This document shows positions 3,526 to 49,243 of a stretch of 64,000 bases of DNA, piece by piece (the first letter of the stretch is position 1; the number at the start of each line of letters is the position of its first letter). Source of the stretch: a virus. Lineage: Duplodnaviria > Caudoviricetes. The notes below the pieces were generated by a model. That model did no database searches. It saw only the letters and a list, made by a program, of their open reading frames with translations, and had not been told where the DNA came from. The translations under genes were made by a program, and so were the position numbers. Where the stretch lies: IMG/VR virus record IMGVR_UViG_3300028833_000053; one strand, 5' to 3'.

Positions 3526-3547
3526 TAAATGGTAAATACCATTATCA
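3523..3547 (+). promoter_or_regulatory. Late promoter motif GGTAAATA (3531-3538) inside a hairpin reaching the next start codon
   Basis: TGATA-A-ATGGT-AAAT-ACCAT-TATCA; the last A is the A of ATG 3547. Confidence 0.6.
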
Positions 3548-6500
3548 TGAATAGCGCATTGACAAGACCATAGTCCCTACAGGAACTCTACAAGACATAC
3601 TTTTCGTTTGCCAACCGGTTCCAATTCACTTCTTTGCTGAGAAACTACATTCAGAACGAGGAATGGAAGGACCGTTCATAGGAGCCTGTATGGGAGGTCT
3701 TGTCGAAAATTTCTGACGACATTGGTGCCGTGTTGACGGATGACATCGTGAACTACACGCGAAACGTTGTTGATGTCAATACCTGCAAGGTTCCGGAACT
3801 CATTGAACATGCGCAAATGCTTTCCTACAGGCTTGACCACCTGAGGAATTCCTATGAGTTCTTTCCGAAGCGCATACAATGCCTTGTGGATATTTTTTCC
3901 GTGAATCCGGAGTATTTGTTGGGTAATCATCAGAACCACGTTCTTTCCGATACCGTCATAAAGGAAATACTGATTTACATTAGGGAGAACGTCAAGGACA
4001 GAAAGCCGTTCATCAACGACGATGCCATTGACAAGTTGCTGGATGACCCTCATAGTTTGACGGATTCGCAAACCTATTACAATTTCGTGTAGAACTTGTT
4101 TTACGTTTCCTTGGTGGAGGCGTTGTCCGCGCCATATTCTTTGGAAGATGCCCAACCAATTGTGTTCAATCTTCTTTTCAAGGAACGCCAGAACCAACAG
4201 AACGTGCTTTCGCGCATAGAGGAATACAAGTCTTGGATTGACAGATACATTTGGAACGAGATTGAATATCCCTTGAACGACTCGGGCTTGGCGAACACGA
4301 TTTACGGCAACGTTGAAACCATAAAGAATCAGAAGCAGATTTCAGTCAAGTTCAATCCATTCAAGATTGCAGACCACATCTACTTCAACGGATTGAATCC
4401 AAACAACGGGCTTTCGGACGATGAAATGTACTTGGTTGAAATGGTTCTTGACTACCACGCCAAGACGAAGTACGATTACGAAGCGGAACAGTTCGTGGAT
4501 GACCTTTCCACGCAATATGCCTATTACAAGGAGTTGGAGTTCTGTGAATACGTGAAGTTGGTGATGTTCATAGTGAACAACCTCAATCAATTCCATTTGT
4601 CCGGGTTGACATATGACATTTCCAGCAACAAGTTCATGAGCGAAAGCCGCGACGATGCCAATTGCATGAGAGTGGTGAACATCTTCAATGAGGATGGGAA
4701 CATCGTTGAATATCATGGTGGAAGAGTTGCGTTGAACCATGATATTTTGCTGAAAGTGGCGAAGTTTCTAACTGAATACGTGTTTCACATTCAGGGAATA
4801 CGCGAGAACATGAAAACCATTGCGCATAAACACGCGATGAGGGGTTCCGCGGCTTTGCTTGTGCATATTGTGAACGACTATCTCGTGAAGGAGCTGCCGT
4901 TCGTCCGTGACATGATGTATGAAGGGGAAGAGGACACCCCAATGAAGTTCCTTTGGGAGACCGACTCCCAGTTCCGAAACTATGGCAACGTCAAGGTTCT
5001 CGAATACGAGGACGACAACGAGTATTTCAACATCGACCCAGAGAAGGATGTGTTGTTCACGGAAAGAACCAATGACCGCTATTGGGAGCAGCTTGAGAAC
5101 ATGGGGTATGACGATACCTTGGGCGTTCTCACGAAGGGGCAGATAAAGGACTTCTACAGAAACGTTCTTGGAATGGGAAGGTTGCAGCCCTCGAAGTCCA
5201 TGCACTATGACGATGTTGCCGATTTCCTTGTTGACCTTTTCAAGATTGGCGCGAACCCTATTGAATGGGACAAGGGCGAGGAAGAATTCTACAATCCCAT
5301 TGACGACATAGAAAACAAGTCCGAAGAGGACTATGGCTACACCAAGGAAGAGCGTTTGGAGGTTCAGAGGAACACGGAATTGCGCAAGAACCAAGAAAAG
5401 CAATTCAAGGAATACAGTGGAAACGATGACTTGGTTGGGGACAGCATATACGATCTCTTCAACAGCAAGTTGTTCTATTGGAAGAACACGGACTATTCCT
5501 CACACGCGCTTCATCCGTTCATGTACAACTTGAAGTTGTGGAACAAGTTGAACAACATCATCATCAACGGTTACCGCGACTACATTGACAACGACCTCAT
5601 AGACTACTTGTCATCAAAGACGAAGTTTGACGAGATTTTCGGAAAGTTCGGAGAGGGAAGGAAGTTCTGGAAGTACAACGTGGTGGATTTGAGCGGCTAC
5701 ACCACACGTTATGAGGCGGCGGTCAAGGATGAACGCCTTGAAGACGACAAGAACAGCATCAGTGAACTTACTGGATATGATGGTTTGTTCTATCCAGAGG
5801 CGGCTCGGGCTTTCTTGAATTTGTATAATGCACCCAACCAGGACTTTACTCTTACAAATGAGTTCTTCAAGGAAAGTGGAAACAAATTCTATAAGGGCAA
5901 GAATGAATTTGTCGCCGCCATATATTCCATATACTGGCAAGATTAGACAACCGAGTTGTACCAAAAGGATTCGGCTACCGGGATTGAGACAAGCACAAGA
6001 GATGACTCGTTCTACACAAGATGGTATTCACACCTGAACTACACAAGGAGCGAGTACCAGAAGATAGCCCTTCAACTTTGGTATTGGCGCGACAGAATAT
6101 GGGAGTTGATTTCCATTGAATACCCAATGACCAGGTATTGCCTTGACGTTCAGGGAAATTCCTTGATATTGGTTTCCACGTTCCAGGATGGGGATGACGA
6201 AAAGAATCCCTATCTTGTTGACCTTGCCATTGCATAGGAAGATGTTGAACAGAACAGAAACAGAAACAAGAACACAAGTGTTTCGTTTTGCGACAACAAG
6301 TTGAAGCGTCCAAGCGAGTTGTGGATACGTTGGAAGTCAAATCCAATTGCCTTGCCTGCGTTTGATGCGTTGTACGACCACAAGACGGGGGATTATTGGT
6401 TTGACTTTTACCACCGCACCGATGGCAACACCGAAATGGGTCAGCTTACCCACACCAACAGCGATTGCAACGACAATTTCAAGGTTGTTCTGTTGAAGTG

Positions 6501-9500
6501 GATTGCAAAGTACGAAAAGACGATAAAGTGGACGTATTAGGAACCCGGTTCGGATTCCGAAGCCCGTGTTTTGAGTGGAAACAGGCTTCCGGTGTTCTTT
6601 GACATGGAACAGTCGGCCAACGTCCTGGCTCTTGCTTCTTGGTATATGATACCATATATTGACACGGATGGCATAGTCCATGTTGACTCCAATGGCGAGC
6701 AGTTGAACGTGGTGTGCTGCTCCAAGAATCCGATGCACATAATCTCCTTGGAGCGCACAAGCATGAATCCATCGGAGTATTGCTTGGGCGAGTATTCCAG
6801 TGAGACCTCTTTGAACAACACGGACGTCTACCTCAATTGGTTGTTTGACTCCTACCAGTATTGTCAAGCCAATGGCGCGTTGATGATTCCCTTGTATTCA
6901 TTTGACTGCACGGATGAAGAGGGAAGCGATTACCACCAATATGCCAATTTGAGGGTGTTCTTGGTTCCCGCCCAGGAGTTGAAGGGCGACACGCACGTTG
7001 TGAACGACAGGTTGGTTCAGTTGAAGGATATGTGCGTTGACTTGAACCAGCAGGTTGATTTCAACGATACGGACAAGAAATACAGGTTCGACTATCCGAT
7101 AAAGGTTTGCCGCAACACGCGCATGGTGTTCTCTGCCTATGACCGAAACGGCTCAAACAGGATGAAATGCGCGTTCCTTGGCGTGTTTGACGCGAATAAG
7201 GAACATTATCTCGGAAACAACTATGCCAACACTTCTTGCAAGGTAAGTTCTTGCATGGCGAAGACGAGGTACGAGTACGATTCACAGTCAACAGTTGACC
7301 TTGGATTGACGAAGGGAAGATACTACCTGGAAAACATTGATTCAGATCCAAGCCAGTATGGGGATGACAAGGATACGTATCTTGACAAGTATGTTGCCAA
7401 GGAGTGCTTCAATTCCTACGATTCCAACGACAAGTACGTGTTTGTGCTGGATTTCGACCCATCCATAGACCACAAGAGCATGTTTGACATTTCCTGGAAA
7501 ACGGGACTTTCAACATACACCTACAACATATTGGGTGACGCCGGCTACATTCCACATTTTGCCTACCAGTCATTGATACGCTACAGGGCCGATGACAAAG
7601 ACGCCGGAGTTGCATATACTTGGAAGAACTCCTACACCGAAAGCAAAGACCACATGCAGTTTGAGTTGTTGGGACTTGACGACAAGGCACTTCCGTTGAC
7701 ATATGAAGCCATAAGCAAACTTGTGGTTGAGGACTTGACAGACGAATGCAGTACCTTGCTTTGCCCGGCAAAGCTCATGGATGACATCTACCGCATTTGG
7801 TGCGAGACAAGGGACGTTAAAACCAGATTGTATTTCCCCCAGTACGGAGAATACCAAAACCATTTCCACAATGAATTTGTGGACTATCCCAACCCGGAAG
7901 TCAGCTTTGGATTTGACTTGAAAGACGAGATTGAGGAAAATGGTGTCAAGGTAAAACCCTGTGGCAAGGGAATTACGGTCATGGAGGTGGTGAATCCACT
8001 TGACGAAAATTACCAATACAAGGACAAGGGTTGGGGCAGCAAAACCAAGGTCATAGATTGGGATGTTTCTGAGACAGTTGGCTTGCGAGACGATAATGGG
8101 AATCCGGTTTTGCAAAAAGACAGCCGTGGAGAACCGTTGATGTTCAACAAGACCACAGGAAAGATAATCCACAAGGCATCCGGCGAAGACCATTATGAGG
8201 ACGACTTTGGCGTTGCAGTCGATCCAACGGAAGTTGAAAACAACTATGAAACGCGCCCTGTTGACATTGGCTTGTTTGAACTTGACCTGCCCCAAAGCGA
8301 ACAGGGGATAGACGAGGATGATACTCTGACTGCCGCGCAAAAGGCGCAAAGAAAGCTTGACGCTTTCAAGAAGTTGCTTGACGAATACTATGTATACGTT
8401 GTGAGGACCGAAAACGGCAACATATTGAACGAGAAGAGGTACATTCTCCCGCCGACAAGGATTTCGGAGTTCATCTTGGGAATGGGCGACCGCGATGGAT
8501 TCATGAAATGCAGTCTCAGTCCATACCAAACGCCAATCATACAAGACGAGCATTTTGTCAATACACAGGTTGTGTTTGCCGGAACGCCCAATCCGTTCTC
8601 ATACGACTTGAATGGAAACAGGATATACTCGAAGCCGGAGGAGTTGCAATATGGAAATTCCTTGGCTGGAGTTGATTCCATAGAGTTGAAGATTGACATA
8701 GTTGGGTTTGTTGACGAAGAGACGTTGAAGTACGACGACACTGGCAATCCAATTATGACAACGGACAAGGAGCCGTATGAACCAGATTGGCCCGTGTACA
8801 TGACTTCCACGCGCAAGTTCCTCAAGCCAACTTTGCGTTTTGTCAAGAACATGCCAAGCGGTGAAAGGTTGATAGACAAGGTTCAATGGAACACGAACTT
8901 GGTTCCGGATGGGGAAGTCACGGTGATGTTCTCCCACAAGAACCTTGACAACTTGGCGAAGTACCACATAATGAACAGACAGTCAAACCTGTACTTTGAT
9001 GGTTCGTTGCCCAAGAATTCCGAACACAAGAACCAATACAAGTTCTCGGACTTCAAGTACAGCGAATCCGTGATGATATACAAGGAGGGTGACAAGTGGA
9101 AGTCGATTGAGACGGATTCCGAGAACAACCCCATATTGGAGTTTGTGATGGATGACGTTGGTTCGGAAGGTGGAAGTACGTCGGATAACCTTCCTCCATA
9201 CTATGTTGAGGTGGAGAAAGAGACTGGGACGGAGAAGTGGTATATTGAACAGGACAGGCTTGTTCCAGATCAAGTGAAGACGAAGCAATTTAACGGTGGA
9301 ACGTATGTTGAAGATACCGAACACTCTGGAAAAGAGAAGTTTGTGGGCGGCGACAAGCACAAGATAGAATCCATTTGCAATCCAGACCTCAATCCAACTG
9401 ACATGATATGCCATGTTGGTAGAATAGGGAACACCATAATATACGATGTTCCAAAGCCCGGTGATGTCAACAACAACCCGTCCGACCAAGGCAATGAAAC

Positions 9501-12500
9501 AAAATGGGAAGGTGGGTTCCGCTGGGCACATAAGGTGAAGTCGGAGCCCGAGAAGTATCTTGACTACTTCTACATTGCGAACGGTGGCTTGGCGTTCAAG
9601 GTCAGCGAAGAGTCATATTCCTTCGCGGAAGCCATGTCAAGGATACCTCCTTTCTACATTGACTTTGTTACAAGAAACAAGCTCCAGGACTTGAACAACA
9701 TCCAGGTGTTGAAGGAATATTCCACGTTCATCCACCAAAGCGAGAATCCCGACAAGGTGAAGGAATGCGGTAACTTCAATCCCCTGATTGTGGATGCCAT
9801 ATTGAGGTATGGCGTTGAGCAGAGGGAATTGAGCAGACTCAAGAGAGACGGCCAGGGGATTCCGATATTGAACGGAAGTGGGGAATACATATACATTGAC
9901 GATGACAACAACATGGTTAAATATGATGCATCGGGGAACGCCATCAACCCATTGTCTGTGAAGGTCATATGCACGGAACCCTATTCAGGAGATTGGGATC
10001 GGCACATACCGACATATATGCCATACACAGGTTTCTCCAGTGTCAAGCCCGGCACTGTGGCGTCTTCCGTCAATCAAAGGCTCATAGAGTTGAACAACAC
10101 GTCTGGAACAAGCACGTTGCTTCTTCAGTTGGATGATGGCGAGATTGACGACTATCTGAGAATATACACCAACTACGTCAGAGTTGACGATGAATATGGT
10201 GATTACCACTACGACCTGTACTTCAACATACAAAATCTCTTCAATTCTCCGTTCGAGTACATTTCCACCGTGACCGGACAACCCAACGTCCTCATATTGA
10301 AGGATTCCTACCTTTATCTCACGGGTGACAAGTTCACGAAAGTCCAGGACGGGGCCACTGGAACATGGCACAACGAGATAGACGATGACAAGGTTGCCGC
10401 GATAAAGGAAGGTGGGGAACTCACGATCTATGGTCAGGTGAAGACATATTCTGGCGAGAAGTTGAGTGATGTCCAAACCATAAAGTTGTTCACTTACAAG
10501 ATTCACAACATATCCGACGACAAGCCGAAGTTCCTCATAGAGAAGACCTATGACATAACGAAGTCCACGTTGCAAGGGAACGTCACGAAGAACATCAACA
10601 TAGAGTTTTCCGACGTTTTGTGGACGTTGGACGAGGTGGATTTTGAAATAAAGGACAACAAGGACAACAAGTTCAAGGAGTTGAAGAATGACGTAACAGT
10701 TGTACAGCCCGTGAAGTTGCGCTACAACTGGGACAGAGAGGACGACTTCAGGATAAAGTCAATTTCCTTTGACCTCGTGAACGATGTCATAGACTTCAAC
10801 TAGGTTCCGAAGTTGTGTGAATATTGGGTTCAGGACAGGACTTTGCGCGACAAGACAAGTGACGGGAAGAACTACCCATACTATGACCATTGGAGCGACA
10901 AGTACATGAAGTTGGAAGTGGATGACATCACCTAGATTCCAAGAATGACCTTGATGTACGATGAACTCAACGGACACAATTTCGAGACAATCTATCTGAG
11001 GTGGAAACTTCCAGCGGGTTGCCGCATAATGGACACGATTGACCGGCTTGGTGGATATGTGTTCAGTTCCACCGCCGCGAACATAATGGCTGATTGCAAC
11101 AGCAGCAGAACAACGCCAAAGTTCAACGTCACCTTGGGTCATGTTGTTGTTCGCGTACATGAACCATAGAAAGACGGGGAACGTGGAAAGATGTATTTGG
11201 GAATGGAGCATTCCTCCACAAGGAGGCAGAATGGCTATGTATTGAAAGGATTGGCCGAAAGCATTGAAGCCGCGTTCAACCTCAATCCAAATACGTATGG
11301 GGCAGCCGCGAATCCGACCTTTGAGGACGCAAGTGGCACATACAAGGACAGGAACAACTAGACGCACAATGTAAGCACAACGCATGTTGCAGTTCCAGAA
11401 ATAGAGATAGAAGATGCGGTTCTCAGTGCCTCGTCAGGGGAATCCAACAAGCAGCACTCGATTATGCTCAACGCGAATGGCGGAACGATTGGTGGAAAGT
11501 CCCGTGTTGTGAAGGTGTTTGCCCATGGTCAGTTGTTTGGAAACTTTGTGCCTGACACTTGGGGCAGGAACATATTTGATGGATGGTACAACACAAAGGG
11601 AGTTCAAATAACTCCCGAAACGCCAATCAACTCCTCCGATACGTTGTATGCACGTTGGAAGATGGCAGAGTGCATAGTGACGTTCAAGATGAACGTAACC
11701 GGTGACATCACAGACAATGGATATATCAATGGGGACAAGGTTGTTGTTACACAGTCCTTTGACAGTGAAACGGGCGAAATGAAGAAGAAGTACCCTCACG
11801 GAACCAAGGTGGGTGAACTTCCAACGTTCTCCGCGTCTGGCGAGTGGAGTGCCTGCACACCAAATGGCTGGTGGACCGACAGCATCAATGGAGACCAAGT
11901 TGGGTCAGACAAGAGCATTGAGGACGATGTAACGTTCTATGCGCACTTGACTGGGAAGACCACCATCAAGCGCGTGAACAACAGTACTGGAAATAGATAG
12001 GACGTGACAATTGTGCGCGATGGCCGTGAACATTTGATAGCCTCGAACTTTGCACCAAACGTCTATTTGATGTCAACGGACAAACTTGACTTTGCAAAGG
12101 ACTTTGAACTTGTTGTTTGCGGTGTAACGGGTGGAAATATAACCAACAACCAAGAAATCTTTGGTATGACTGACGGCACGGCGCACGGTGGCGTTCCTCC
12201 GTATACGCATTCCGAACTTGAACTTGGCGCATATCAAAACAAGGCTATGTTTGAATTTACGCCTGGTAGAGTTGACACCTATGACGCAATAACGGCAAAT
12301 ACGTTGTATTATTACAAGGTAATCAAGAATGGTGCAAAGCTCTATGGATATCTCAGTAAAGATGGCGTGAATTGGGACTTCCAGAGAGAAGGAACGCCCA
12401 AGACAGTAAATTCCTGGTTTGTTCTTGGTTTTGATTATGATGTCACTTCTGAACAGGAGGACAGTGAATATTGGCGTGGCACGATAGACTTGACGGAATC

Positions 12501-14304
12501 CTACATCAATATTGGCGGTTGCAAGTACGAGTTCATCTTGAACATATTGATGATATTCAACGCCAACACCGGACACTTTGAGGATGGCACCGAAATAATG
12601 CGCGTTGAAAAGGATATGGGAATGTCGTTCAAGTTCCCCAACGCCTACAGGACGGGATACGTGTTGAATGGTTGGTATGACGCTTCCACCGCCGGAACAA
12701 AGATAGGAATACCCGATGGACAGTATATCCCGGACAAGTCACGCACGGTGTTTGCGCATTGGGACCCGATTAGGTACTATGTCAACTACAATGGAAACGG
12801 GAATACATCTGGAACCATGTCGAAGTCCGAGCATTTCTATGACCGTACATTGAACCTTGCGGAAAATGGCTTTGCTAGGACATACACGGTGACGTTCAAC
12901 GCCAATGGCGGTGATTGTTCAACGTCGGAGGTCACGGCAACACGTCCATTCAAGGAATGGAGAACCAATGCCGATGGAACAGGGACGAAGTTGAACAACA
13001 GACATTCTGAAGTTGTCAATTTGACGGCAATCGAAAATGAAACGAAGGAAATCTACGCCCAGTGGAGCAATGCCACAATAACGTTGCCATCCGCTACAAA
13101 GGCAAACCACACATTTTCCGGTTGGTATGATGCATTGACGGAAGGACACAAGATTGGGGACGCTGATGCAACCTATACATATGCGCCAACAGCCAACAGC
13201 ACGTTGTATGCGCATTGGGATATAGTCAAGTATGGCATTACACTCAATGCCAATGGCGGAACCATAAATGGAAAACCCCAGGACGTTGTGCAGTATGGTC
13301 ATGGTTCAGAATTTGGAAATCCATTGCCTGAAAGGGATGGATACGTCTTTGATGGTTGGTATTCAGAAGCCACCGGTGGAACCAGAATAGAGCCTACAAC
13401 AAAGATAACCGAAGCTGGAACGTACTATGCGCATTGGATTGAACAGATAGTTGTGACATTCGACAAGAACACGCCTTACAACGTCTATACGGTAAAGGGT
13501 GATGGAAGTGTCGGAGCATATTATTTCGCAGATGGTATTGTGCCAAAATTGAATGATTGGAACGGCGTTACAAAAGTGATTATGCTAGATGGAATAACCG
13601 AAGTAGGAAGTGGCGCATTTGATTCTTGGCGAAATTATCCGACGCAACCAAAACCAAACTTGCAGGAAGTGGTTTTCCCATCAACACTTAAAATCATCAG
13701 AGAAAATGCTTTCAAGGAATGTGAAAACTTGACAAGTGTGACTATACCGAACAGTGTTACGAGCATCGGGAATTATGCGTTCAGTGGGTGTAAAAAGTTG
13801 ACGAACTTGGTAATTCCTGACAGTGTAACTTATATGGGGGAAGGTGCGTTCAATCTTTGCAGTGGCATTGAAAGTATTACAATAGGCAATGGCATTACCG
13901 AACTTTCCGATCATGTGTTCCATAGTTGTGGCATGATAACCGGAACATTGAACATTCCAGATGGAGTGACTACTATTGGAGTAGCTGCGTTGGCCGGGCT
14001 GGGCGTATCAAGAATAACGTTTGGCAGTGATTTGACAACAATTAAAGATTCGGCGTTTGACTATTGTAGCAATTGCAAGATATTTGATTTTAGAAAGGTG
14101 AAAACTGTTCCGTCCTATCTAAATGAGTCTTGCTTATTCTATAGAATACCAGACGATAAGAAGATTATAGTTCCCGATGAGTTGTATGATTCTTGGAGAA
14201 GTACAGAACCCTGGAACGCAACAACAGATTATTGGGATGGTAAGATACATAATCACCAACAATGCATCGTCAAGGCAAGTGAATCTTCACTTGGGAGTTT
14301 ATAA
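3547..14304 (+). CDS. Giant virion-like protein (3585 aa): baseplate-wedge-like N-terminus, Listeria-Bacteroides (InlB B-type) repeats, C-terminal BspA-type LRR
   Basis: One frame with only TAG interruptions (3571, 3679, 4090, 5944, 6235, 6538, 10801, 10933, 11167, 11359, 11998), ends TAA; NANGG...F.GWY...LYAHW repeats about 11460-13450; VTIPNSVTSIGNYAFSGC LRR about 13590-14200. Confidence 0.85.
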
Positions 14305-35015: not shown

Positions 35016-35543
35016 ATGAAAATTGAAGTGTACAGCTTGAACAAGATTCTCAAGGTCGCGGACCGTGAGAAGGGGTGCAACATTCTCTCAATCAGAGATC
35101 CCTATGCAGGGGACGATGGCACGACGGACGCGAAACATGCGTGTCTTGACAGGAGAATCGCAAGGAATGGAATCAACGCCAAGATTGTCTATTTCGACGA
35201 CATAGACCCGTACCGTTTCTATCATGACATGGAGCATCCTTTCATCAAGGCGAAGTTCGTGGATGGAACGCATCAGCCCACGTTTTTCAACGCGCAGATT
35301 GCCGGCGAGATAATGCACTGGGTGATGGACTTGTGGAAGAAAGACCACAACTGCACCATCAAGATTCATTGTTGGGCGGGCCGTTCTCGGTCGCAGGCCG
35401 TTGGCTATTGGCTGAACATGTACTTTAACCTCATGTTGGAGCGCAACATTGAGGACTACATGGCGAACAACGCCGTCAACGTGACGGAGAAGATTCACTT
35501 CAATTGCGAGGTGCTGCGCGTGTTCACGTCAACTTTTGGATGA
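35016..35543 (+). CDS. Protein-tyrosine/dual-specificity phosphatase-like protein
   Basis: P-loop IHCWAGRSRS; FDD motif. Confidence 0.8.
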   Translation: MKIEVYSLNKILKVADREKGCNILSIRDPYAGDDGTTDAKHACLDRRIARNGINAKIVYFDDIDPYRFYHDMEHPFIKAKFVDGTHQPTFFNAQIAGEIMHWVMDLWKKDHNCTIKIHCWAGRSRSQAVGYWLNMYFNLMLERNIEDYMANNAVNVTEKIHFNCEVLRVFTSTFG

Positions 35544-38225
35544 CGAGCCGCTTGAGCTGGAGGACGATGAGGAACTTCCCCCGCCACCTTCCTGCCCTCC
35601 CGTTCCAAATTTCATCATGCTCTCGAAGTTTGCAAGGGACTTAACCAACTTGTCAAACTTGTTGCAGGCGCACTTCACCGGTATGCACTTCGGCTCAACG
35701 TGGTTCTCGGAAAGGGACAGGTGATTCCAAGGCTTGAGTTCCGTTATGTCAATGCCGCCTTGGCAAAGTTCAGCGGCAAGGCAAGTTTCATTTGCTTCCG
35801 ACTGTACGCTTGAACCCATGTTCATTTGGTCTTCGTTGGAATACTTGTTTGGTTGAAGTTCGTGCAAGGCAATCTCCTCATCGTACTCCTTCTTGTTCTT
35901 CATGTTGTTCACGTCGGAATAGATGCCATACGCCTCTTCAACCTTCTTGAGCAGTTTGTGGTTCTTCTCGCGCAGTTCGTTTATCTCGCATAGTTGGGCA
36001 TCGTTACAGCAGTTTCCATTCAACGATGGGTCTGCCATGACCGCTGAAATGGCAGCTTGCTTTATTCCAATTGCTTCAACCGCCGCGCACATCCACTGGC
36101 AAAGTTCCTTCACGAAAGGTCTGTAGTTCTCCGAGAGGAACGCTATGTTCTCCACCTTGTAGCACACGCAAATGGGCTTTAGCAGGTCGCAAAGGTGTCC
36201 GGGGCAGGTGAAGTGACCTATCAAGTCGCATGTGTCGAAGTTGTACGAGTCATAGCCGGTGCTTGCTGCCGTTTCACTGATAAGGGTTTGGTCAACAACA
36301 ACTGGACTCCAAGGCGAACAAGAACTCATTACAATAGCACCCATTGGGATTTGGTGGGTGTGGTCGTGTTCCGTTGTCACCGGAACTTCCTGCAAACGCC
36401 ACCAGTTGTCCGGGCAACTTATGATCCCATCCGTTCCACCGCCATGGTGTTCAACCTCTATTCTCCACAGTCTTGTCAAGAACTCCCTTTCCCAACAGTC
36501 ATACACTTCCGTCCATGCGTCCAACATGGAATCCTCAAATGCGTTTATGCTGTCAATTGCCATTTGACACCAAGTTGGAAGTTCTATTGTCGGGCCTTTT
36601 TCTCCGTACTCCCAAAGTTGGTTGAACATAGAGTCAAGAATGTTCTTTCCTTTCTTCGGCAACAGAGCCTGGTTCACCATTACGTCCATCACGCCCTGTT
36701 GGATTACGCACTTGAAGGCCGTTATGTGCTTCTTGAGTTTCTTCGGGCACATTCTTGTGTGGGTGATGGAACAGTGCCACCCTGGGTTCTCGTGGTCGCC
36801 TTTCTAGTCCTCTATGAGTTCGTTCATTATGTCCAACGCGCCATAGACCGGATTGGCAAGAGTGTCTATGTTGCACCATATCAAGGGGAACGGTCCAGGC
36901 CCGGAAGGGCATACGCATCTGCATTGCTTCATCGTGTCAAGGGACTTTTCCCTCAATTCTTGGAACAGCTTTTTCACGCAACTCAACTTGTTCGTAAGGG
37001 TGAATTTCTCAACGGCATCCTCCTTTGGCGCAATATACGTTGTACCTTCCTTCTTGTGGTTTTCCACACCCGTGTCGGTTACGCCAAGTTTCTTTCCCAT
37101 TTGGGAGTCTATTATCTTGGAAGTGAAAATCTTTTCCTTGTCTTGAGCCGCGTCTTGCTCTATCGTTTCCTTCACGTTGAGGAACTTTGAGATTGTCTGT
37201 GACACCGCGTCCTTGTTCATCAACCTGTCAATCACGCCCTCCAGCAAATCCACTTTGCGAATCATCGTCTCGATTGCGATTGGCTGCATGGGGAATTCGC
37301 AATAGGTTCCGAGTTTCATCATTTCAACCATTTCGCCCGTGAGACCGGGAACCCAATAGTCCTTGCAGTAGCGTTTGGTGCAAGAGTCCGGTCCGCGCTT
37401 GATGAACCAGTTGTTCGCCCAATCCTTCAATGCACGTCCAGTCCAAAACACGTTTGTTTGGAACGTCTCTTTGCAATCTTGGTTGGGGATGGAAAGAAGT
37501 TTGTCGTAGGAGTTGTTGTCAACCACAGTGTAGAGGTGTTCCATTCGCAGGATGTTTGCCTTGTACTGGTCAAGCGCCGCAAGCACCACGTTCTTGTCCT
37601 TTTCGTAGTGTTGCACCCAGCCTTCCGGGGCGAAGAACCTTGGATTGGTTGTTTCGGGATCGTAGATCTTCCCTTCAAGTTTTAGGAAGTCACGGCACGT
37701 CTTCTCCATCGTGATGAGATCGTCCTGTGGGGTGAACTGATCTGCAACGTTGTCGCGTTGCGTGATGGGGCAAGAGCTCTGTTTTGGAATGGCACGATAC
37801 ACGGTGAATATCTTTTTGCACATGGAGTTGACGGAATCATCAACGTCCTGCATTCCAACTTCACCAAGATCGGTGTCGGGATTTGTTCCACCCGGATATT
37901 CAGCTGCACTGTCCCCATTGGCAGAGCCGCCGCCGCAACTGCCGCCTTTTTTCTTTTGTTGTTCCTCTTCTTTGTCCTTGCCGTCTTCACCACTGCTTTC
38001 AGTCATTTGGGACAACTGGTCGAGTATGGCATCCTCTGCCTTGTCCCCTGCCCAAGAACCTACTTTTTCCCCGATATATCCTCCAACCATGCTTCCTATC
38101 GGACCGCCATATGCCGCACCAATGGATTCACCTGCCGCTTTTCCAGCTTTACCCCCTATTTGTGAACCCATCTGCCCTCTTTCAACTGGCGTGTTTTCAA
38201 TGAGATTTTCTTTCAATTCTTCCAT
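35529..38225 (-). CDS. Cys-rich virion-like protein with N-terminal glycine zipper (898 aa), TAG read-through at 36804
   Basis: Two same-frame ORFs separated only by TAG; ends TGA; GGTAAATA upstream. Confidence 0.75.
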
Positions 38226-38249
38226 CGTTAAACGTTCCTTCCATTGTGG

Positions 38250-38280
38250 TATTTACCATTTATCCCAAATATGGTATACT
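38250..38280. promoter_or_regulatory. Overlapping divergent promoters: leftward GGTAAATA and rightward TTTACC-N17-TATACT
   Basis: TATTTACC at 38250-38257; TATACT at 38275-38280. Confidence 0.55.
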
Positions 38281-40154: not shown

Positions 40155-43100
40155 ATGGCTCAACCAAGGACACAAGATAACCAAAAGGTATTTCAATCGG
40201 CGACATAGAACTTCAAGTCCTTTGTCGGTGCGGTTGACAATGTGTCGTCGTCAAAGAACATCAGTGAAATCTACGACAACATGACAAAGTTGTTTGACGT
40301 TTTCACCCAAGGTGCTTTGACGGGTCAGGGCGCAAACTCCGAGATTTTGCTGCGAACTGTCTACCGTTCCTTGTCGGATGACTTCCTGAAGATAATCCAG
40401 GACACGGACGCCGTTGAAAAGATAGTGGAACTCATAAAGAGCAAGCAGGAAAGCATAGACCCTGAGCAGGTTGACCAGGCTATGGTTTCCGAGACCACGA
40501 AGAAGGTTGTCACGAAGACGCTTGACCCATACGAGTGCGATCCAATGTCCGTGGTGTTGGATTTCGTTGACGAGCTTCAAACGGCAATTCTTCAAGTCAA
40601 GCTCAACCTCTCGCGTGAATACGAGAGGAAGAAGCTGGCTTATGCGAAATCCTATGAGGGACAACAGGAAGATCTTGACCGCCTCAATCAGGAATACACC
40701 GAGCAGGACGAGGCTATGGTGGAAGTCCTTGAACAGATGTCCGAGGACGAGGAGACTTGGAAAGAGGATTCGCTTGAGAAGTTGGAGAAGTTGCTTGAGA
40801 CGTTCAATGAGATTGGCAAGGGCAAGGATTCCAACTATGAGTTGTTGCAGGGTGTTGACAAAACCCTGTCCACCGACAAGCAGATTCAGCAATTCTTGAA
40901 GGAGAAGCCACCGAAGTTCTCTCCGAAGAAAACGCTTGATGCCATAAAGGGTGTTGGGCAGTTGAAGAGCAAGCCGGACGTCACAACCGTTGAGAGCAAG
41001 ACCCAAACCAAGACCGTTGTGAAGTCCACGCAAACGGAAATCAAGAACACGGTTGTGGTGAAGGAAAAGGCGAAGAAAGACGGAAAGAAAGTTCCATAGC
41101 CGAAGGTTCCTGAAAAACCAGTTGCGAAGGACGAGAAGAAAAAGGAAACGCCTGTAAAGGAAAAGACACCCGAAACGCCGACTCCGGTGAAGAAGGATGA
41201 GGCAAAGACGCAGACCCCACAGGTTCCGGAGAAAACTCCAGAACCCATTGGCAAGAAGGGTCCGCCACCAATCCAGCAGGAAAAGATAAAGGTTGCTCCG
41301 CCTCCACCATTGCCGGTAGTTCCACCTCAAATCGAGAAAGAAGAAAAGCCGAACGAGGATGAAAAGGCTAAAAAGCCCATTATGGAAAAACCCATAATGG
41401 AGAAGCCCATTATTCAAAAGCCGGTAATGGGAAAGCCGATAATAGAAAAGGCGGTTGACGAAAAACCCAAGGTTGAGAAACCAACTCTGGAAAAGGCAAC
41501 GAAGGAAAAGCCGACAATTGAGAAACCAAAGGTTGAACCAGTATAGGTATAGAAGCCAACCTTGGAGAAGCCAATGGTCGAGAAGCCGACGGTTGAAAAG
41601 CCCGTCGAGCAAAAGCCAATTGTTGAAAAGCCTGTAGTTGAAAAACCCAAAGAGGGAAAGACCACGGTTGAGAAGCCCAAGGTTGAAAAACCTAAAGTTG
41701 AGAAGCCAATTACAGAAAAACCCGTTGTTGCCAAGCCAATTGTTGAAAAGCCAAAGGTTGAGAAGCCGACATTTGAGAAGCCAAAGGACGAGAAGCCTGT
41801 AGTTGAGAAGCCCGTTCAACAAAAGCCGAAAGTCGAGAAGCCTCTTGTTGCGAAGCCGGTGGAGAAGAAGCCTTTGATAGGCAAGCCGTTGGTGAAGAAG
41901 CCCATTTTGGAAAAGCCGACGGAAGGGAAGCCCATTGTCCAAAAGCCATTGGTCAGGAAGCCTCTCATACAAAAGCCTGTTCTGTCAAAACCAGTTCTTG
42001 GAAAGCCGACAATGGGGAAGCCCATTTTCCAGAAGCCAATCACGCAAAAGCCCCTTCTTCAGAAGCCAATAGTTGAGAAGCCCATAAAGAAGAAGCCGTT
42101 GTTGGAAAAGCCGAAGGTTGAAAAGGCGAAGGTGGCGAAGCCGAAAATTGAAAAGGTCAAGTCAAAGGCCGCAAAAAAGGCTCCTGCCAAAATAGTCAAA
42201 AAGGCTGCAAATGCCGTTCCAAAGTCCCCAATGGGGAAAAAGACGCCCGACCCGAAATTGGCGCAAAAGAACTTTGCAAAGGAGTTGGACAAGACCTTGA
42301 ACGCCGGAAAAGTTCAAGAGCAGAAGTACACCAAGCAGTTGGATGTAATAGAGAAGTTTTTGGCAAAGGACGAGAAAGACGATAAGCAAAAGCACGCCGA
42401 GGATGCAAAGCAGCACAAAGAAGATGACATCATCTTCAAGAAGATGCAGGAGAAGGAAAAGAAGGTAAATGCTGCGAAGGACAAGGCCGAAAAAGAAAAG
42501 CGGGACGAGGAGAGGAAAAAGCAAGCCGCAAAGAAGAAGGAGGCGCCGAAGGCCGTCAAGGCGCAACCCAAACCCGCGTCGGCTCTTGGAAAGAAACCCG
42601 CTCCAGAGAAGCCAAAGGACACCAAGCTCAAGGTGAAGCCCAATGCGGGAATGTGTACGTGCCCGATATGCGGTTCGCAACACCTTCCTGGAATGCACTC
42701 ACATGGCGGGAAGAAAAAGGGTGCAATGCCAATGCCGATTCCCGTTCCAATGGGGAAGGGAAAGCAGGGCAAGTTGGCGCAACCCGCAATTCCATTGAAT
42801 CCACTTGGAGGTGACTAGTCCGAGGGTGGAATTCCACAGGACAAGATTGTGTCCACCCTTGGCACAATCCACGACAACTTGGGCAAGACGATGAACAACA
42901 AGAAGTTCAAGAACTCCTTCATGCTCAACTACAAGCCGATTCAAAAGGGCGTGAAGAAGCAACTTGACAAGGTTGGTTCGGACGAGAAAACCATCAGCCA
43001 GGACTTGGCGGAAACAGAGAAGGGCATCAAGAAGTTGAAGAACAAGAAGAAGGGCAGCTTCCTTTCGAGGTTGATGAACGGCGGCATAACCGGACTCATA

Positions 43101-46100
43101 TTCAAGGTCATAGGTGGATTGATTCTCATTGCCCTTGCAAGAATCGCGTTGAAGAAGTGGAAGGAGGCGTATATGCCTCCGACCGACGGCTCCACGATGA
43201 CCATATTCGGATTCCAGATTCCCGGATGGGACACCATAAAGGCAATTGGAATAGGCATATACAATTTCGTCACCGTGGGATTGATGAACCACTATGACAG
43301 ACTCAAGTTGTTCTTTGGAAACCTTCACAACCAACTTTTCGGCAAGAAGGGGGCAATACGAAGCATGGCGCAGGTTCGCCACATATTGCGCAGAATAGTT
43401 TGGGCGTGGATTATCGGACAGACGAAGAAGGCCGCGCGCGGCCTTTGCGACTGGCTGCTTGACATCTTGGCAGTCCCCTTGAACGCCTTGGCTCCTGGCG
43501 CGGGGCTTGTGTTGAAGTTCCTCATCAAGCTCCTCCCGGAAATATACTCGTTCATCACCACCCAGATAATGCTCTTGTGGAGCAAGAACAAGCGCGATGC
43601 GGAAGAGGCCGAAACCGCGGAAGCCGAAAGCATTGGAATGGCCGTCAATTCGGGAACAACCACGGCGATGAGCATGATAAGTTCCCAGCTCAAGGGTTTG
43701 TCCTCTGGGGTGAAGCCATTCAAGAACCAGGCGGCGAACCTACCCGGTCTTGAAACTCAAAAGGGTCCGAAAGGAAGGGGCCCGAAGAAGATGGCCATAA
43801 TGCGCCGCTTCCCAATCAAGTATTACAAGTCCTTTGACAAGGCGAAGAAGATGCAGAACAAGAAGTTTGAGTCTGACATGGAGGAGAACAAGCAGAAGGA
43901 CGAGAAGCGCATAAACGGCGGGGACGTTCTCATCAGCCAGATCGTCGAGGACACGTCAAAGATAAACCAGGCGGTTGACGAATTTACTGGAAGTATTGGA
44001 ACGTGGATCCATAGTTGGGACAATGAGAAAGTTGCGAAAATAAGGAAGTATGCCCCGAAAGAATATGAAGATGCAGACAATCGGGTGTTGGCAGATAAGT
44101 GGAAATGGGATAAAGAATTCAAATAGAAGGTAATTCATAATTACACGTCGTCGATTAGTCAGGAGATATACAAGAGAACCATAGTGGTGGAGCTGAACAA
44201 GGTTTCCGCGTACATGAACGCGCTTGGAAAGTCCTAGAGATTCAAGAACGTGAAAGGTCCGCTGTATGATCCAGTCAAAGGGTGGAATCCTGGATACAGG
44301 GTGTATGCCTCCGATTTGAAGACGGCGATTCCATTCAATCCGCTTGAAAAGATACACAGCAAGGCCGACATTCCAATTGGCGAGCCTGCGAAGGCCGAAG
44401 CCGATTCAATTGGTTGGATGCCCTTCAAGTGGATTTCCAATGGAGTTCCCGTGAACGTGCATCCTATAAACTGGGAATTGGCTAGGGCGAACGCCATATG
44501 GAACTTGTATAACTGGTTGATGAAGAACCGTTTTCAGAACAATTTGAACAATTGGAACACAACCAACATTGAAGATTTCAAGAAAGCCATTCTTCCAGAC
44601 GTGTTTGCCGACTGGAGAAGCTGGAACCAGCCTGTTGGTGATCACAGAAGCGAAGCCACATGGGGCAAGGCATATCCGCCAGAGACATATCAATATGGCG
44701 ATCAATTCGTACGGTTCATAAATGCTTTCCGCGCTGGCAAGATAGATCATGGGAACAACAATCTTGACACCGCGATGAAATTGAGAGACCCGACGTATCT
44801 TGAAAAAATGTTCGACAAGATGCACAAGAAGTTGGGCGACTATGGCACTGCGGCGGTTTCCGGCGCTGCCATAGGTGGTGCTGTCGGTGGTGCGGTTGGA
44901 GCCGTTGCTGGTGCGGCAATAGGTACCGCAGCGGTTGGTGTGTACAAGGGCGCAAAGTGGGTTGGACAGAAGATGGACGACTTGCAACGCGCTTTGTCCT
45001 ACGACCAAGATCCAGACGGAGAGGAGGAAGAATAGACGGAAGAAGTGGAGGAAGAGCAAAGCAGCGTTCCTCTCATAGGTTGGTTGATAAACGGCGTCAA
45101 GAAAGTTGTCAAGGTCATCAAGAAAATCGTCAAGAAGGTGAGCCGCAAGGTCGCAGCCCTCAACCGAATCAAGGAATGGCGCGGCAAGACCTATTTTGGG
45201 GTTAACTATGGTGACATCCGCGATTTCATGATTGACACTGGCGTTTTGCAGTTGTTCAGTCAGGGATAGATCATCAAGCCAGTCCAAAAGACGATTCCTC
45301 TTCTGGACAAGCTCATTGACATGAAGGTGATAGGGAAGGGGTCAAGCGTGGAGGATGGCAACTCGATGCATTCTCTCATGGAGGCTTTCTTCGCATACAA
45401 CCGCATTGAGGGATATGACTGGAAGAAAATGCAAAATGACGAGAGGGCGCAGGCTGCTTTCGCCCAGTCCCTTTTGGAATATCTCGCCTTGAAGGTCATT
45501 CCTCAGTGGAACATAGTTGAAAAGCTCCTTTCAAACGACGTTACGAAGAAAACCGACGAAACCAAAAAGGCGATGGATGAAGGTGTGCAGGTTCTTGCAA
45601 ACTTGCTTTCATTCAAGGGCATAATGGAACACCTTTCAAAGCATCTCCGATTCCCCAACATGAAGGTCAAGGTCATAGACTTCTCCAATGCAAGGGACGA
45701 TCACGACAGGGAGTTGCTTGAACAGTTCAGAAAAGACCAGGGAATTCCCAACAGCGATGAAAAGAACCAAATACTTGCACAGTGGCAAGGCGTTTGGTCG
45801 AAGATTCCAAGCATGAACGATGAGGAGCTTCAAGGCAGCTTGGATAACTTGAAGAAACTCATTGGGGTTGCGGCATTTGAAGCGAAGTACACCGGAGAGT
45901 TCACTTACGAGAAGCAGTTGCGCAAGTTCTACACCGCCATGATAAAGGAGAAGGACGAGCGTTTGAAAGCACAGGCCGCAGGTGACAAGATTGTTCAGAA
46001 GCCGGGTGGGATAGAGCGCGTCATGGAAGGTCCGCCGCCGAAGACCATGTTGGAAATGGAGGAAGAACGCAAGGCAAAGGAAGCCGAGGAAGCAAGAAAA

Positions 46101-46598
46101 GCGGCGGAAGAAGAAGAGAAGCGCAAAGCCGAAGAGGAAAAGAGGCTGCAAGAGGAGGCGAAACGCCAAGAGGAATTGAAAATTGCCCAGGCGAAGATTG
46201 CCGCCATGGAAGCCATCAAGAAGCAGGAGCAGAACTACGAGAACATCTTGGAGAAGATGGTGCAAGACCCATCAACGGTGACTGATGAGGAATTGAAGTC
46301 ACTTGGTGAAGACGTGAAGAACTTGAAGCAGGAAGCAGAAAACAGGATTGCACAACTGCCAAGAGAGGAAAGGGAAATGAAGCTGGCGTTGATTCGCGGC
46401 GACAAGCTTTCTGAAAAGACCTTCGCCGAGTTGAAGGAAACCGCAGTGGGGTTGAGTGGAAGTCTACAAGCCTACATCTAGGAAGTGAACCAAATTCCAG
46501 TTGGCTCTATAATGGCAATATAGGAAACGCCAGGAACGCCAACAGAAAGCAAGATATAGTTGCAAGACTCCGACAATGTGGATATGGGCGACGAATAA
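40155..46598 (+). CDS. Giant tape-measure/baseplate-hub-like protein (2147 aa) with a KPxxE repeat tract
   Basis: One frame interrupted only by 12 TAGs (40206, 41097, 41544, 41550, 42816, 44124, 44235, 45033, 45267, 46479, 46521, 46557), ends TAA; coiled-coil-like and hydrophobic segments, glycine zipper. Confidence 0.8.
41373..42152 (+). repeat. About 52 tandem KPxx(E/Q) pentapeptides (15-nt period)
   Basis: Register is kept across the two TAG codons. Confidence 0.9.
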
Positions 46599-46629
46599 AA
46601 AGACTTGGTTGGATAAGCCAAGTCTTTTT
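46597..46629. terminator. Bidirectional-type terminator hairpin
   Basis: AAAAAGACTTGG...CCAAGTCTTTTT; TATAAT follows at 46632. Confidence 0.75.
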
Positions 46630-46654
46630 AGTATAATTGAATGTGACGATTTAA

Positions 46655-46691: not shown

Positions 46692-46781
46692 TGAGCAGTG
46701 GTGTACGGCTTGCACAGACGGTCTCTAAAACCGTGGCTTCTGAAGCGAACGGACTGGGTTCGACTCCCAGCTGCTCAACCA
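46692..46781 (+). tRNA. Amber suppressor tRNA (anticodon CUA), long variable region
   Basis: Acceptor TGAGCAG/CTGCTCA + A + CCA; D-stem GTGT/GCAC; anticodon arm ACGGT-CTCTAAA-ACCGT (CTA at 46725-46727); T-arm CTGGG-TTCGACT-CCCAG. Confidence 0.92.
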
Positions 46782-47554: not shown

Positions 47555-48655
47555 ATGCATCGTTATACTCAAGAAGAATTATAGTCTATATTTTAGGACT
47601 AGAAATTGGGTGAGGAAATAATTCCTCATATTAAAAACAATAAGATAGATATTGTTTTGTGGAATCAACGATATAAGCAACAATGGAAATAGATTTAGAG
47701 ACAGATGAAGAAGGGTTTATTGTGTCCGGTTTGTGGCACAATACTATTTAAGTTTTATGAGAAACATTTAGCACAGCATAATCTTACTGTAAAATAGTTA
47801 TATGATTAGGTATATGGTATAACTGAATCACCCAAATGCCCTGTGTGTGGAGAAGCAACAGAGTTTGTTAAGAACAAATGGTTTTATCGTAAATTTTGTT
47901 GTAATGCTCATTAGTGCAGAATTATAAATGAGACTGACGGATTGAGGAACGGATGGACTATTGAAGATATTAGAAATCATAATTCCATGATAATAGAACG
48001 TGGAAGAAAAGTATGCGATATAGTCAATAAAAAATATGGAAGTCAGTTTTCAATAAAATTAACTGATGAATAGCGTCTTAATAGAGGGTTAATAAATGAT
48101 GATGACTATTAGGAGTGGCAGACATAGTAGAAGTTAAAAAAATCAGAAGCCGGAAAACTTGGAGGGAAAAAATATTCTTCGTTATATGGATATAAATTAT
48201 TGAAGACATGGGGTTACAAAACGAAAATATTTTTGACTGAAAATAAATGGTTCATGCTTGAATCTTAGTAGGAATTGTTTCATTTATTGAAACGTGTATT
48301 TATCGACGGAGATAAGATTGAAACTATGAGTAATGCAATATTTTTAGAGAATACGACTAATTTATTTTCTGGAACAAGTGCTTTTACGGATTTGGTTATA
48401 GATAATAATGGAATAAAAACAAATTATGAAGTTCATTGTATAGATGATGAAGACACTATAAAAAGAAAACGATATTGTTCTGAATTAAATGGATATGAAT
48501 TTGTATTGGAAGATATTACTTTATACACATATCCGAATGGAAAATACATTGACCAATTAAGATAGTTTATAAATGTAGATGAAATTTATGAAAAGTTGAA
48601 ATATGAAAATAAATGTGGTAATGTATTTGTATTGAACTTATATGATTATGTATAA
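47555..48655 (+). CDS. Zinc-finger plus PD-(D/E)xK-like putative endonuclease (366 aa, 15 TAG codons)
   Basis: Two CPVCG motifs, KFCC; C-terminal ES..E...FTDLVI...YEVH; GGTAAATA at 47499-47506; ends TAA. Confidence 0.7.
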
Positions 48656-48664
48656 TTATTCAAT

Positions 48665-49243
48665 ATGAGAAGGGTTATCATAATACGTAAAGATTTACAC
48701 CTCAAAGCTGGTAAATTAGCTGCTATGTGTATGCACTGTGCAGAGGCATATTGGACTAACTTGATGAAGTCATCCGTTGTCATTGACAACGAGTTCATGA
48801 CTTTGCCCGCATGGGAGAACTATGGAAATGGAAAAGTGGGACCGGCCCTCTACAAGCACCCAGGACTTTACAAGTTGTCTGAAGAGGCTTACAACCGTGG
48901 GGAGAAGTCCTTCACCACAACGAGGGAAAACGCCCGTAAGTCCGTGACGGTCACGATGGAGATTCCAAAGGACATTTGGGAAGGGTATGTAAACGACATC
49001 TTCACAAAGACAATTTGCGAAGCACGCAACTTGAACAACTTGAAAACGAAGATTGAGCCGGTTGTGCAGGAACTTGGATTGGTTGAGGGGATTGATTGGG
49101 GCTACATCAACGATTGCTGCAAGACGGACTTGACGCCCGAGAACGAGGATGGCACTTGCACGATTGGTGCGTGGTTCAAGCCATTGCCTGACGAAGACGC
49201 ATTCAAGATTAGCAAGAAGTTCAAGCTTTACAGGGATGATTGA
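48665..49243 (+). CDS. pth2: Peptidyl-tRNA hydrolase type 2
   Basis: IIIRKDL..AGKLAAMCMH, FTKTIC, IND..KTD, TCT.G..KP. Confidence 0.75.
   Translation: MRRVIIIRKDLHLKAGKLAAMCMHCAEAYWTNLMKSSVVIDNEFMTLPAWENYGNGKVGPALYKHPGLYKLSEEAYNRGEKSFTTTRENARKSVTVTMEIPKDIWEGYVNDIFTKTICEARNLNNLKTKIEPVVQELGLVEGIDWGYINDCCKTDLTPENEDGTCTIGAWFKPLPDEDAFKISKKFKLYRDD

Follow-up and report, generated by a model that had tools for sequence, protein, structure and literature searches.

A long amber suppressor tRNA from a very large phage presents a second anticodon loop, for glutamine, in its variable region

Phages that use genetic code 15, among them crAss-like phages, Lak phages and phAss-1, carry suppressor tRNAs with the anticodon CUA and translate TAG as glutamine. 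The authors who described these phages left open how the suppressors are charged, and neither paper mentions an enlarged variable arm or a spare anticodon loop (10.1101/2021.08.26.457843; PMC10607447). When phage tRNAs were assayed in E. coli extract, 28 of 29 tRNA-CUA inserted glutamine with E. coli enzymes alone and 13 of 13 tRNA-UCA inserted tryptophan; an extra arm is not mentioned in that report (bioRxiv 10.1101/2025.10.30.685624). Phage amber suppressors and the recoding of TAG to glutamine are already known. The new element described here is a spare anticodon arm, a design of which we found no description in the literature searched.

Other known systems share parts of this design. The E. 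coli suppressor su+7 (supU) is a tRNA-Trp with the anticodon CUA that is charged mainly by GlnRS. Class II tRNAs (Ser, Leu, bacterial Tyr and Sec) resemble the tRNA studied here in their five-way junction, extra hairpin and similar total length; in those for Ser, Leu and Tyr the arm abuts the T stem, the D stem has 3 bp and the D loop is large. Look-alikes of an anticodon that serve outside decoding and are presumed to be bound by a synthetase occur in the E. coli thrS operator and in an element of the yeast HisRS mRNA (PMC6542539), but these lie in mRNA and regulate translation, whereas the look-alike described below lies in a tRNA and would putatively serve its own charging.

We analyzed a 64-kb stretch of viral DNA, referred to as the window. 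As in the code-15 phages, a CUA tRNA and in-frame TAG codons occur in the same genome, the TAGs fill late or structural genes and they appear to stand for glutamine. The tRNA has direct relatives within that group, in cr113_1 and phAss-1.

TAG codons and their amino acid

Reading TAG as a sense codon joins open reading frames of the same frame into three long genes of 3591, 2147 and 366 aa (Table 1), while the genes for topoisomerase II subunits, DNA methyltransferases and a sigma-factor-like protein in the window are free of TAG. The codons that face TAG were read from two close relatives, L126 and L128, which have about 92% amino-acid identity to the window and together cover about 30 kb of it. 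Between the window and these relatives, real genes contain 18 sites that pair TAG with a sense codon, and the partner is CAG at 11 of them, CAA at 3, and GAG, GGG, TAT and CCC at 1 each; glutamine codons thus make up 14 of the 18. Pairs of TAG with AAG that came from plus-strand shadow frames across 35529-38252 are false, and the final count is that of the real genes. Scored with the substitution frequencies of those same alignments, glutamine leads the runner-up by 12 log10 units, and serine, leucine and tyrosine lie more than 17 log10 units below it. The CAG and CAA partners and this lead together indicate that TAG means glutamine in this phage lineage.

Comparison over larger distances was less informative. 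In a tail-fibre-like protein the TAGs sit at variable positions (N/A/H/G/K), so the amino acid could not be taken from distant homologues, and the TAG partners in L129, a relative with 57% identity, are mixed. No conserved family from PHROGs or Pfam covers a TAG site, and no relatives of the gene with 15 TAGs were found in viral contigs.

Two of the frames have features of their own. The 2147-aa protein (40155-46598, plus strand) contains hydrophobic segments and a long tract of KPxxE-type pentapeptide repeats, its Pfam matches to Extensin and HC2 being spurious; within the repeat, TAG occupies a position where the other copies mostly have E or Q. A 907-aa frame on the minus strand (35529-38252) has a single in-frame TAG and no Pfam match, and the genes around it are on the plus strand.

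Homologues of the window lie on contigs of 417-437 kb, and the phage is therefore very large. A megablast search with the 12 kb around the tRNA gave no match among GenBank phages. The tRNA is preceded by a terminator-like hairpin and by a promoter of its own (Table 1). The hairpin is absent from the list of a simple terminator scan, probably because its 9-nt loop exceeds the limit of that scan. The promoter box GTATAATTGAATGTGACGA recurs ahead of the syntenic tRNA in the distant relative L129, where the -10 box and the bases that follow it are conserved.

The syntenic tRNA itself (L129:13984-14060, plus strand, in a 417-kb relative) is a short CUA tRNA of 77 nt with an A1.A72 mismatch, G73, a 6-bp D stem and no extra arm; the arm was therefore gained or lost within this phage lineage. 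The window also encodes a PTH2-like peptidyl-tRNA hydrolase, free of TAG, 1.9 kb downstream of its tRNA (48665-49243, plus strand; PF01981, E = 2.4e-10), and L129 has a PTH2-like gene at the matching place (L129:15966-16544).

Table 1 Features of the window around the suppressor tRNA and the TAG-containing genes.
Feature	Position	Strand	Basis
3591-aa gene with 11 in-frame TAG; C-terminal Listeria-Bacteroides repeats and BspA-type LRR	3529-14304	+	TAG facing CAG/CAA in relative L126
2147-aa gene with 12 in-frame TAG, its end 93 nt upstream of the tRNA	40155-46598	+	TAG facing CAG/CAA in relative L128
Terminator-like hairpin AAGACTTGG / CCAAGTCTT followed by TTTT, ending the upstream 2147-aa gene	46600-46630	+	Sequence reading; drawn in weak Rfam alignment
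Sigma-70-like promoter TGGATA-16-TATAAT, 54 nt upstream of the tRNA	46610-46637	+	10 of 12 matches
Amber suppressor tRNA(CUA), 90 nt	46692-46781	+	ARAGORN; 84.2 bits against family covariance model; family covariation
Decoding anticodon arm ACGGT-CTCTAAA-ACCGT, anticodon CUA at 46725-46727	46718-46734	+	Sequence reading, ARAGORN, fold
Extra arm GC-[UUCUGAA]-GC, glutamine anticodon CUG at 46740-46742	46736-46746	+	Family comparison and control
Linker GAACGGA, 7 nt, extra arm to T stem	46747-46753	+	Sequence reading
366-aa gene with 15 in-frame TAG, downstream of the tRNA	47555-48655	+	Reading of TAG as sense

The 90-nt tRNA and its relatives

ARAGORN calls only one tRNA in the 64-kb window, of 90 nt with the anticodon CTA, at exactly the position (46692-46781, plus strand) given by an initial annotation of this DNA. 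Direct reading recovers every part listed there, namely U1:A72, G2:C71, A73, an encoded CCA, one base too many between the D and anticodon stems and a variable region of 19 nt. The acceptor stem is TGAGCAG/CTGCTCA, with A3:U70 as its third pair, and U8 and G9 lead into the D arm GTGT-ACGGCTT-GCAC, which has a 4-bp stem and a 7-nt loop. Two bases (AG), where one is usual, separate the D stem from the anticodon stem. The variable region reads GGCTTCTGAAGCGAACGGA, the T arm is CTGGG-TTCGACT-CCCAG, and the discriminator A73 at 46778 is followed by the CCA at 46779-46781. Apart from the variable region, these are the parts of a bacterial-type elongator tRNA: a 7-bp acceptor stem, a D arm, an anticodon arm of 5 bp and 7 nt with U33 and a purine at position 37, and a T loop of the GTTCRA type.

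The minimum free energy fold gives the cloverleaf together with a GCUU-CUG-AAGC hairpin, and the folding energy is unremarkable (z = -0.79). On this sequence the general tRNA model of Rfam (RF00005) stays below its gathering score, owing to the odd D arm and the extra arm; the best match among Rfam models, a weak one, is to tRNA-Sec with 33.6 bits against a cut-off of 47. With the Rfam miss and an ordinary folding energy, status as a tRNA therefore rests on comparison with relatives.

Some candidate identities and folds were rejected. tRNA-Sec has an 8/5 or 9/4 acceptor/T branch, a 6-bp D stem and the anticodon UCA; the window tRNA has 7/5 stems and CUA, and its Sec score is below the cut-off. 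The label 'Pyl' given by ARAGORN reflects the CTA anticodon only, as tRNA-Pyl has a 3-nt variable loop in place of 19 nt, a 6-bp anticodon stem and a tiny D loop. A centroid fold that pairs the 3' strand of the anticodon stem (CCGU) with a downstream ACGG was discarded since the anticodon stem covaries in two relatives, L014 and L028, and the ACGG does not follow.

A BLAST search with the 90 nt found relatives among GenBank phages in the crAss-like cr113_1, where a tRNA of 91 nt is annotated as tRNA-Gln, and in phAss-1, where the annotation is tRNA-Sup-CTA and CUA tRNAs of 75 and 91 nt stand side by side. IMG/VR was scanned twice. The first scan, from which half of the family first came, required the shared motif TCTGAAG; the second was unbiased, in that just the anticodon arm and the beginning of the T arm were prescribed, with 12-32 free bases between them. 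Together they yielded 77 distinct long CUA tRNAs of two kinds, 18 with ordinary Ser- or Leu-like bodies and 59, including that of the window, with a compact D arm and the spare loop described below. The spare-loop family thus has at least 59 members.

Aligned across these 59 relatives, 93.3% of cloverleaf cells are paired, compared with 72.4% in shuffles and 38.7-51.3% when the partners are slid, and changes on both sides occur at 18 of 23 pairs; the alignment was built with a covariance model and made to fit the structure, and the counts carry no correction for common descent. The window sequence scores 84.2 bits against the family model. Its nearest relatives by sequence (L006, L014, L017, L027, L028 and L036) share the D, extra and T arms with it and differ in their acceptor stems. 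On this comparative evidence, 46692-46781 is judged to be a real suppressor tRNA. Within the family, the 1:72 pair is weak or mismatched in 51 of 59 members, and position 73 is G in 42, A in 10 (as in the window) and U in 7.

In phAss-1-like phages (L002:3897-4065, also L004, L020, L026, L032, L040 and L041), two CUA tRNAs lie 3 nt apart directly after a tRNA-Leu(UAA): a 75-nt, Gln-type CUA tRNA with U1.C72 and G73, and a 91-nt CUA tRNA with the spare arm.

A glutamine anticodon loop in the extra arm

Each of the 59 extra arms can fold into a hairpin whose 7-nt loop reads N-U-(C/U)-U-G-A-N, which in the window gives the fold listed in Table 1. The central triplet is always one of the two glutamine anticodons, CUG in 48 members and UUG in the other 11. 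A U like U33 is found in 57 of 59 loops and an A like A37 in 55 of 59, although neither base was fixed by the search; the commonest loops are CUCUGAA (32), CUUUGAA (7), UUCUGAG (5) and UUCUGAA (5, among them the window). The closing pair of the hairpin forms in 58 of 59 members, as does the second pair, which is C:G in 30, G:C in 21 and U:A in 5. When ancestry is ignored, the covariance-model alignment has the spare helix 100% paired, and each of its two pairs shows two-sided changes. Between the 3' end of the loop and the T stem lie 9 nt in 49 of 59 members, including that of the window, roughly what a normal anticodon stem strand and a short variable loop would occupy.

Other long tRNAs served as a control. 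A 7-nt hairpin loop centred on YUG is present in 59 of 77 long CUA tRNAs as against 5 of 53 long UCA tRNAs and 4 of 149 long sense tRNAs from the same loci, and a long arm was found in none of 26 phage tRNA-Gln with sense anticodons. The conservation and the control together indicate that selection maintains a copy of the glutamine anticodon loop in the extra arm.

The window tRNA is an ordinary, rather minimal member of this family. It displays the anticodon of the amino acid it would insert in a 7-nt loop closed by 2 bp, a stem length that it shares with others (16 of 59 members in all), and two other pairings, GCUU-CUG-AAGC and UCUG/CGGA, compete with this fold. The former hairpin had been put forward in the initial annotation. 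It does form in the window's minimum free energy fold, but it is specific to this copy, in which a U at loop position 1 makes it possible; most relatives have C there and cannot form it, and it is not the fold of the family.

The extra arm also differs from that of class II tRNAs, contrary to the reading of the body as a chimera of Gln and class II types. The tRNA has a compact D arm (4-bp stem, 7-nt loop), the extra arm is set off from the T stem by 7 nt, and the loop is fixed as a copy of an anticodon loop; what had looked like a Ser/Leu/Tyr-type arm is a hairpin showing the glutamine anticodon.

A similar arrangement is found with UGA. An unbiased scan for UCA tRNAs with a long arm gave 53 distinct sequences, which split into tRNA-Sec-like bodies and a class that has a tryptophan loop in the extra arm. 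The loop CUCCAAA or GUCCAAA occurs in 31 of the 53 and often sits on a full 5-bp stem, for example CGGGT-CTCCAAA-ACCCG. The spare loop therefore follows the inserted amino acid, glutamine with CUA and tryptophan with UCA. A survey of these phages reports TAG to glutamine and UGA to tryptophan as the only two reassignments. One CUA tRNA (L125:7800-7893, plus strand) has a spare loop of the tryptophan type, GAGGT-GTCCAAA-GCCTC, and may be a member of the UCA family with a switched anticodon or belong to a phage that reads TAG as tryptophan.

Identity marks, charging and competing explanations

The decoding arm of the window tRNA is of the tryptophan type rather than the glutamine type. It shares 16 of 17 positions with ACGGT-CTCCAAA-ACCGT, the arm most often found in phage tRNA-Trp, the sole change being C35 to U, whereas phage tRNA-Gln arms read NNNGA-CUYUGAC-UCNNN. 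When the extra arm is removed, the nearest isotype of the body is tRNA-Trp (0.71) and tRNA-Gln is outside the top three; the similarity to any isotype is nevertheless weak (mean of 0.66 for Trp and 0.65 for Ile), so that only the anticodon arm is clearly Trp-like. Descent from tRNA-Gln was rejected on these grounds.

These features recall su+7, which likewise has a tryptophan arm with C35 changed to U and a weak 1:72 pair and inserts glutamine. In contrast to the window tRNA with its CUG hairpin and A73, su+7 is a class I tRNA of 76 nt with G73 and no extra arm.

Substrates of E. coli GlnRS are marked by a weak 1:72 pair, G2:C71, G3:C70, G10, G73 and a YUG anticodon with A37. Judged by these rules, which may not be those of the host, the window tRNA has U1:A72, G2:C71 and G10, and differs in A:U at 3:70, in A73 and in its anticodon CUA. 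Acceptor marks of the glutamine type are present alongside a variable region of class II size in this atypical amber suppressor, as had been noted, and TAG is a sense codon in its genome. The use of U1:A72 as a mark of tRNA-Gln does not hold in this setting, because phage tRNA-Trp has A1:U72 and G73; the family, moreover, is rich in weak and mismatched 1:72 pairs. YUG followed by an A37-like base is found in the spare loop of the window tRNA and nowhere else in it.

A dedicated phage synthetase had been suggested as the charging enzyme. Neither a Glu/Gln-synthetase nor a release factor was found among the window ORFs scanned. The search for a Glu/Gln-synthetase catalytic domain and a release-factor domain was also negative in five other phage genomes that carry family tRNAs, four of them complete (97-100%) and one 78% complete, while all control genomes gave matches. 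Given the four complete genomes without a synthetase and the published E. coli extract results, in which E. coli enzymes sufficed for nearly all tRNA-CUA, the enzyme that charges the spare-loop family is probably that of the host. Family members come both from crAss-like phages of Bacteroidota and from phAss-1, for which a Firmicute is the predicted host; the reader could therefore be GlnRS or GluRS with GatCAB.

We propose the following reading, to which we give a probability of about 60%. Expressed from its own sigma-70-like promoter and with an encoded CCA, the tRNA would act as the phage's own amber suppressor in the translation of the TAG-rich giant genes around it and insert glutamine at UAG. 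On the ribosome, its ordinary 5-bp arm and 7-nt loop would present CUA to UAG. G36 is the base read most strongly by glutamine-specific enzymes, and we suggest that the spare hairpin lies between the anticodon and T arms because CUA lacks it. A host enzyme, either GlnRS or, in hosts without it, a non-discriminating GluRS followed by GatCAB, would read the spare CUG loop in place of the missing anticodon signal, together with the weak U1:A72, G2:C71 and G10, and glutamine would be attached. Either arm may perhaps be able to stack on the D arm. It is this contact between the host synthetase and the spare loop that we infer, beyond the tRNA, its family, the selection on its loop and the meaning of TAG.

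Several observations count against charging through the spare loop. The arm of the window is minimal, with 2 bp and competing pairings, and its A73 departs from the G73 of 42 of 59 members. The arm is also dispensable in some phages, as the 77-nt tRNA of L129 has none and phAss-1-like phages keep a short and a long version. Furthermore, we know of no structure that explains how a synthetase spanning from acceptor to anticodon would reach a loop on a side arm.

If it is correct, the proposal would add a new kind of tRNA identity element. A spare loop that tracks the amino acid offers a concrete hypothesis for charging without a phage synthetase. Extended to UGA, it would mean that stop-codon suppressors split identity from decoding, one arm serving the stop codon and a spare arm (Gln for UAG, Trp for UGA) the host synthetase; we consider this wider statement an even bet. 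Such a split would be a natural and general answer to the charging of viral stop-codon tRNAs by host enzymes and a ready-made design for engineered suppressors, with these tRNAs as a natural template for efficient suppression in genetic-code engineering. There is also a gain for annotation: because spare-arm tRNAs fail the general tRNA model of Rfam, they may be misread as Ser-, Sec- or Pyl-like genes.

The main rival holds that the tRNA inserts glutamine and that the extra arm is a drifted relic of a tandem duplication of the anticodon arm, kept without function, with charging through U35, the weak 1:72 pair and G2:C71 as in su7 and supE. The spare loop is the decoding loop CUCUAAA with G at position 36 (CUCUGAA), a single-base difference, and is unlike the CUYUGAC of phage tRNA-Gln, which has C rather than A at position 38 and a different stem; it thus resembles the tRNA's own loop more closely. 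A duplication would also give the exact copy of the Trp arm seen in the UCA family, and the armless CUA tRNAs of related phages and the 2-bp stem of the window fit a relic as well. A relic, however, should decay. In 59 sequences the bases like U33, U35, G36 and A37 are kept while the stem beneath them compensates, the one variable position of the triplet is limited to C or U so that it stays a glutamine anticodon, and the same design arose for tryptophan with UGA. This pattern of conservation argues against neutrality, and we regard the relic as unlikely, though better placed than the explanations that follow.

Less probable still is a role for the spare loop other than charging, as a decoy or shield against anticodon nucleases, as a site for a modification enzyme, or as a second conformer in which the CUG arm decodes CAG. 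Sequence analysis does not specify which protein reads the conserved loop, and the 9-nt distance to the T stem, being that of a normal arm, might let either arm stack on the D arm. Against this, the pairing of a glutamine loop with CUA and of a tryptophan loop with UCA follows the inserted amino acid and points to charging, many members have a stem too short to serve as an anticodon arm on the ribosome, and we know of no glutamine-specific nuclease in phage defence.

A true class II identity, in which the long arm and A73 would make the tRNA a substrate of TyrRS, LeuRS or SerRS and UAG would stand for Tyr, Leu or Ser, is very improbable: the long variable region, A73 as the Tyr and Leu discriminator, the U35 and A36 that CUA shares with the Tyr anticodon and the existence of true Ser/Leu-like CUA tRNAs in other phages (L075, L062, L110) speak for it, but TAG faces a Tyr codon once and no Leu or Ser codon in real genes, both the scores and the arm geometry given above disagree with it, and the Ser/Leu-like CUA tRNAs stand apart as a group that lacks the YUG loop.

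That group, with ordinary Ser/Leu-like class II bodies and no spare glutamine loop, also includes tRNAs of L067, L056, L088 and L093, and raises the possibility that TAG stands for Ser or Leu in some phages. Finally, a tmRNA with the tag DNNYFDSHMAA or a similar one lies within the tRNA clusters of some phages that carry spare-arm tRNAs (L046:1001-1345, L049:5009-5354 and L054:3167-3510).
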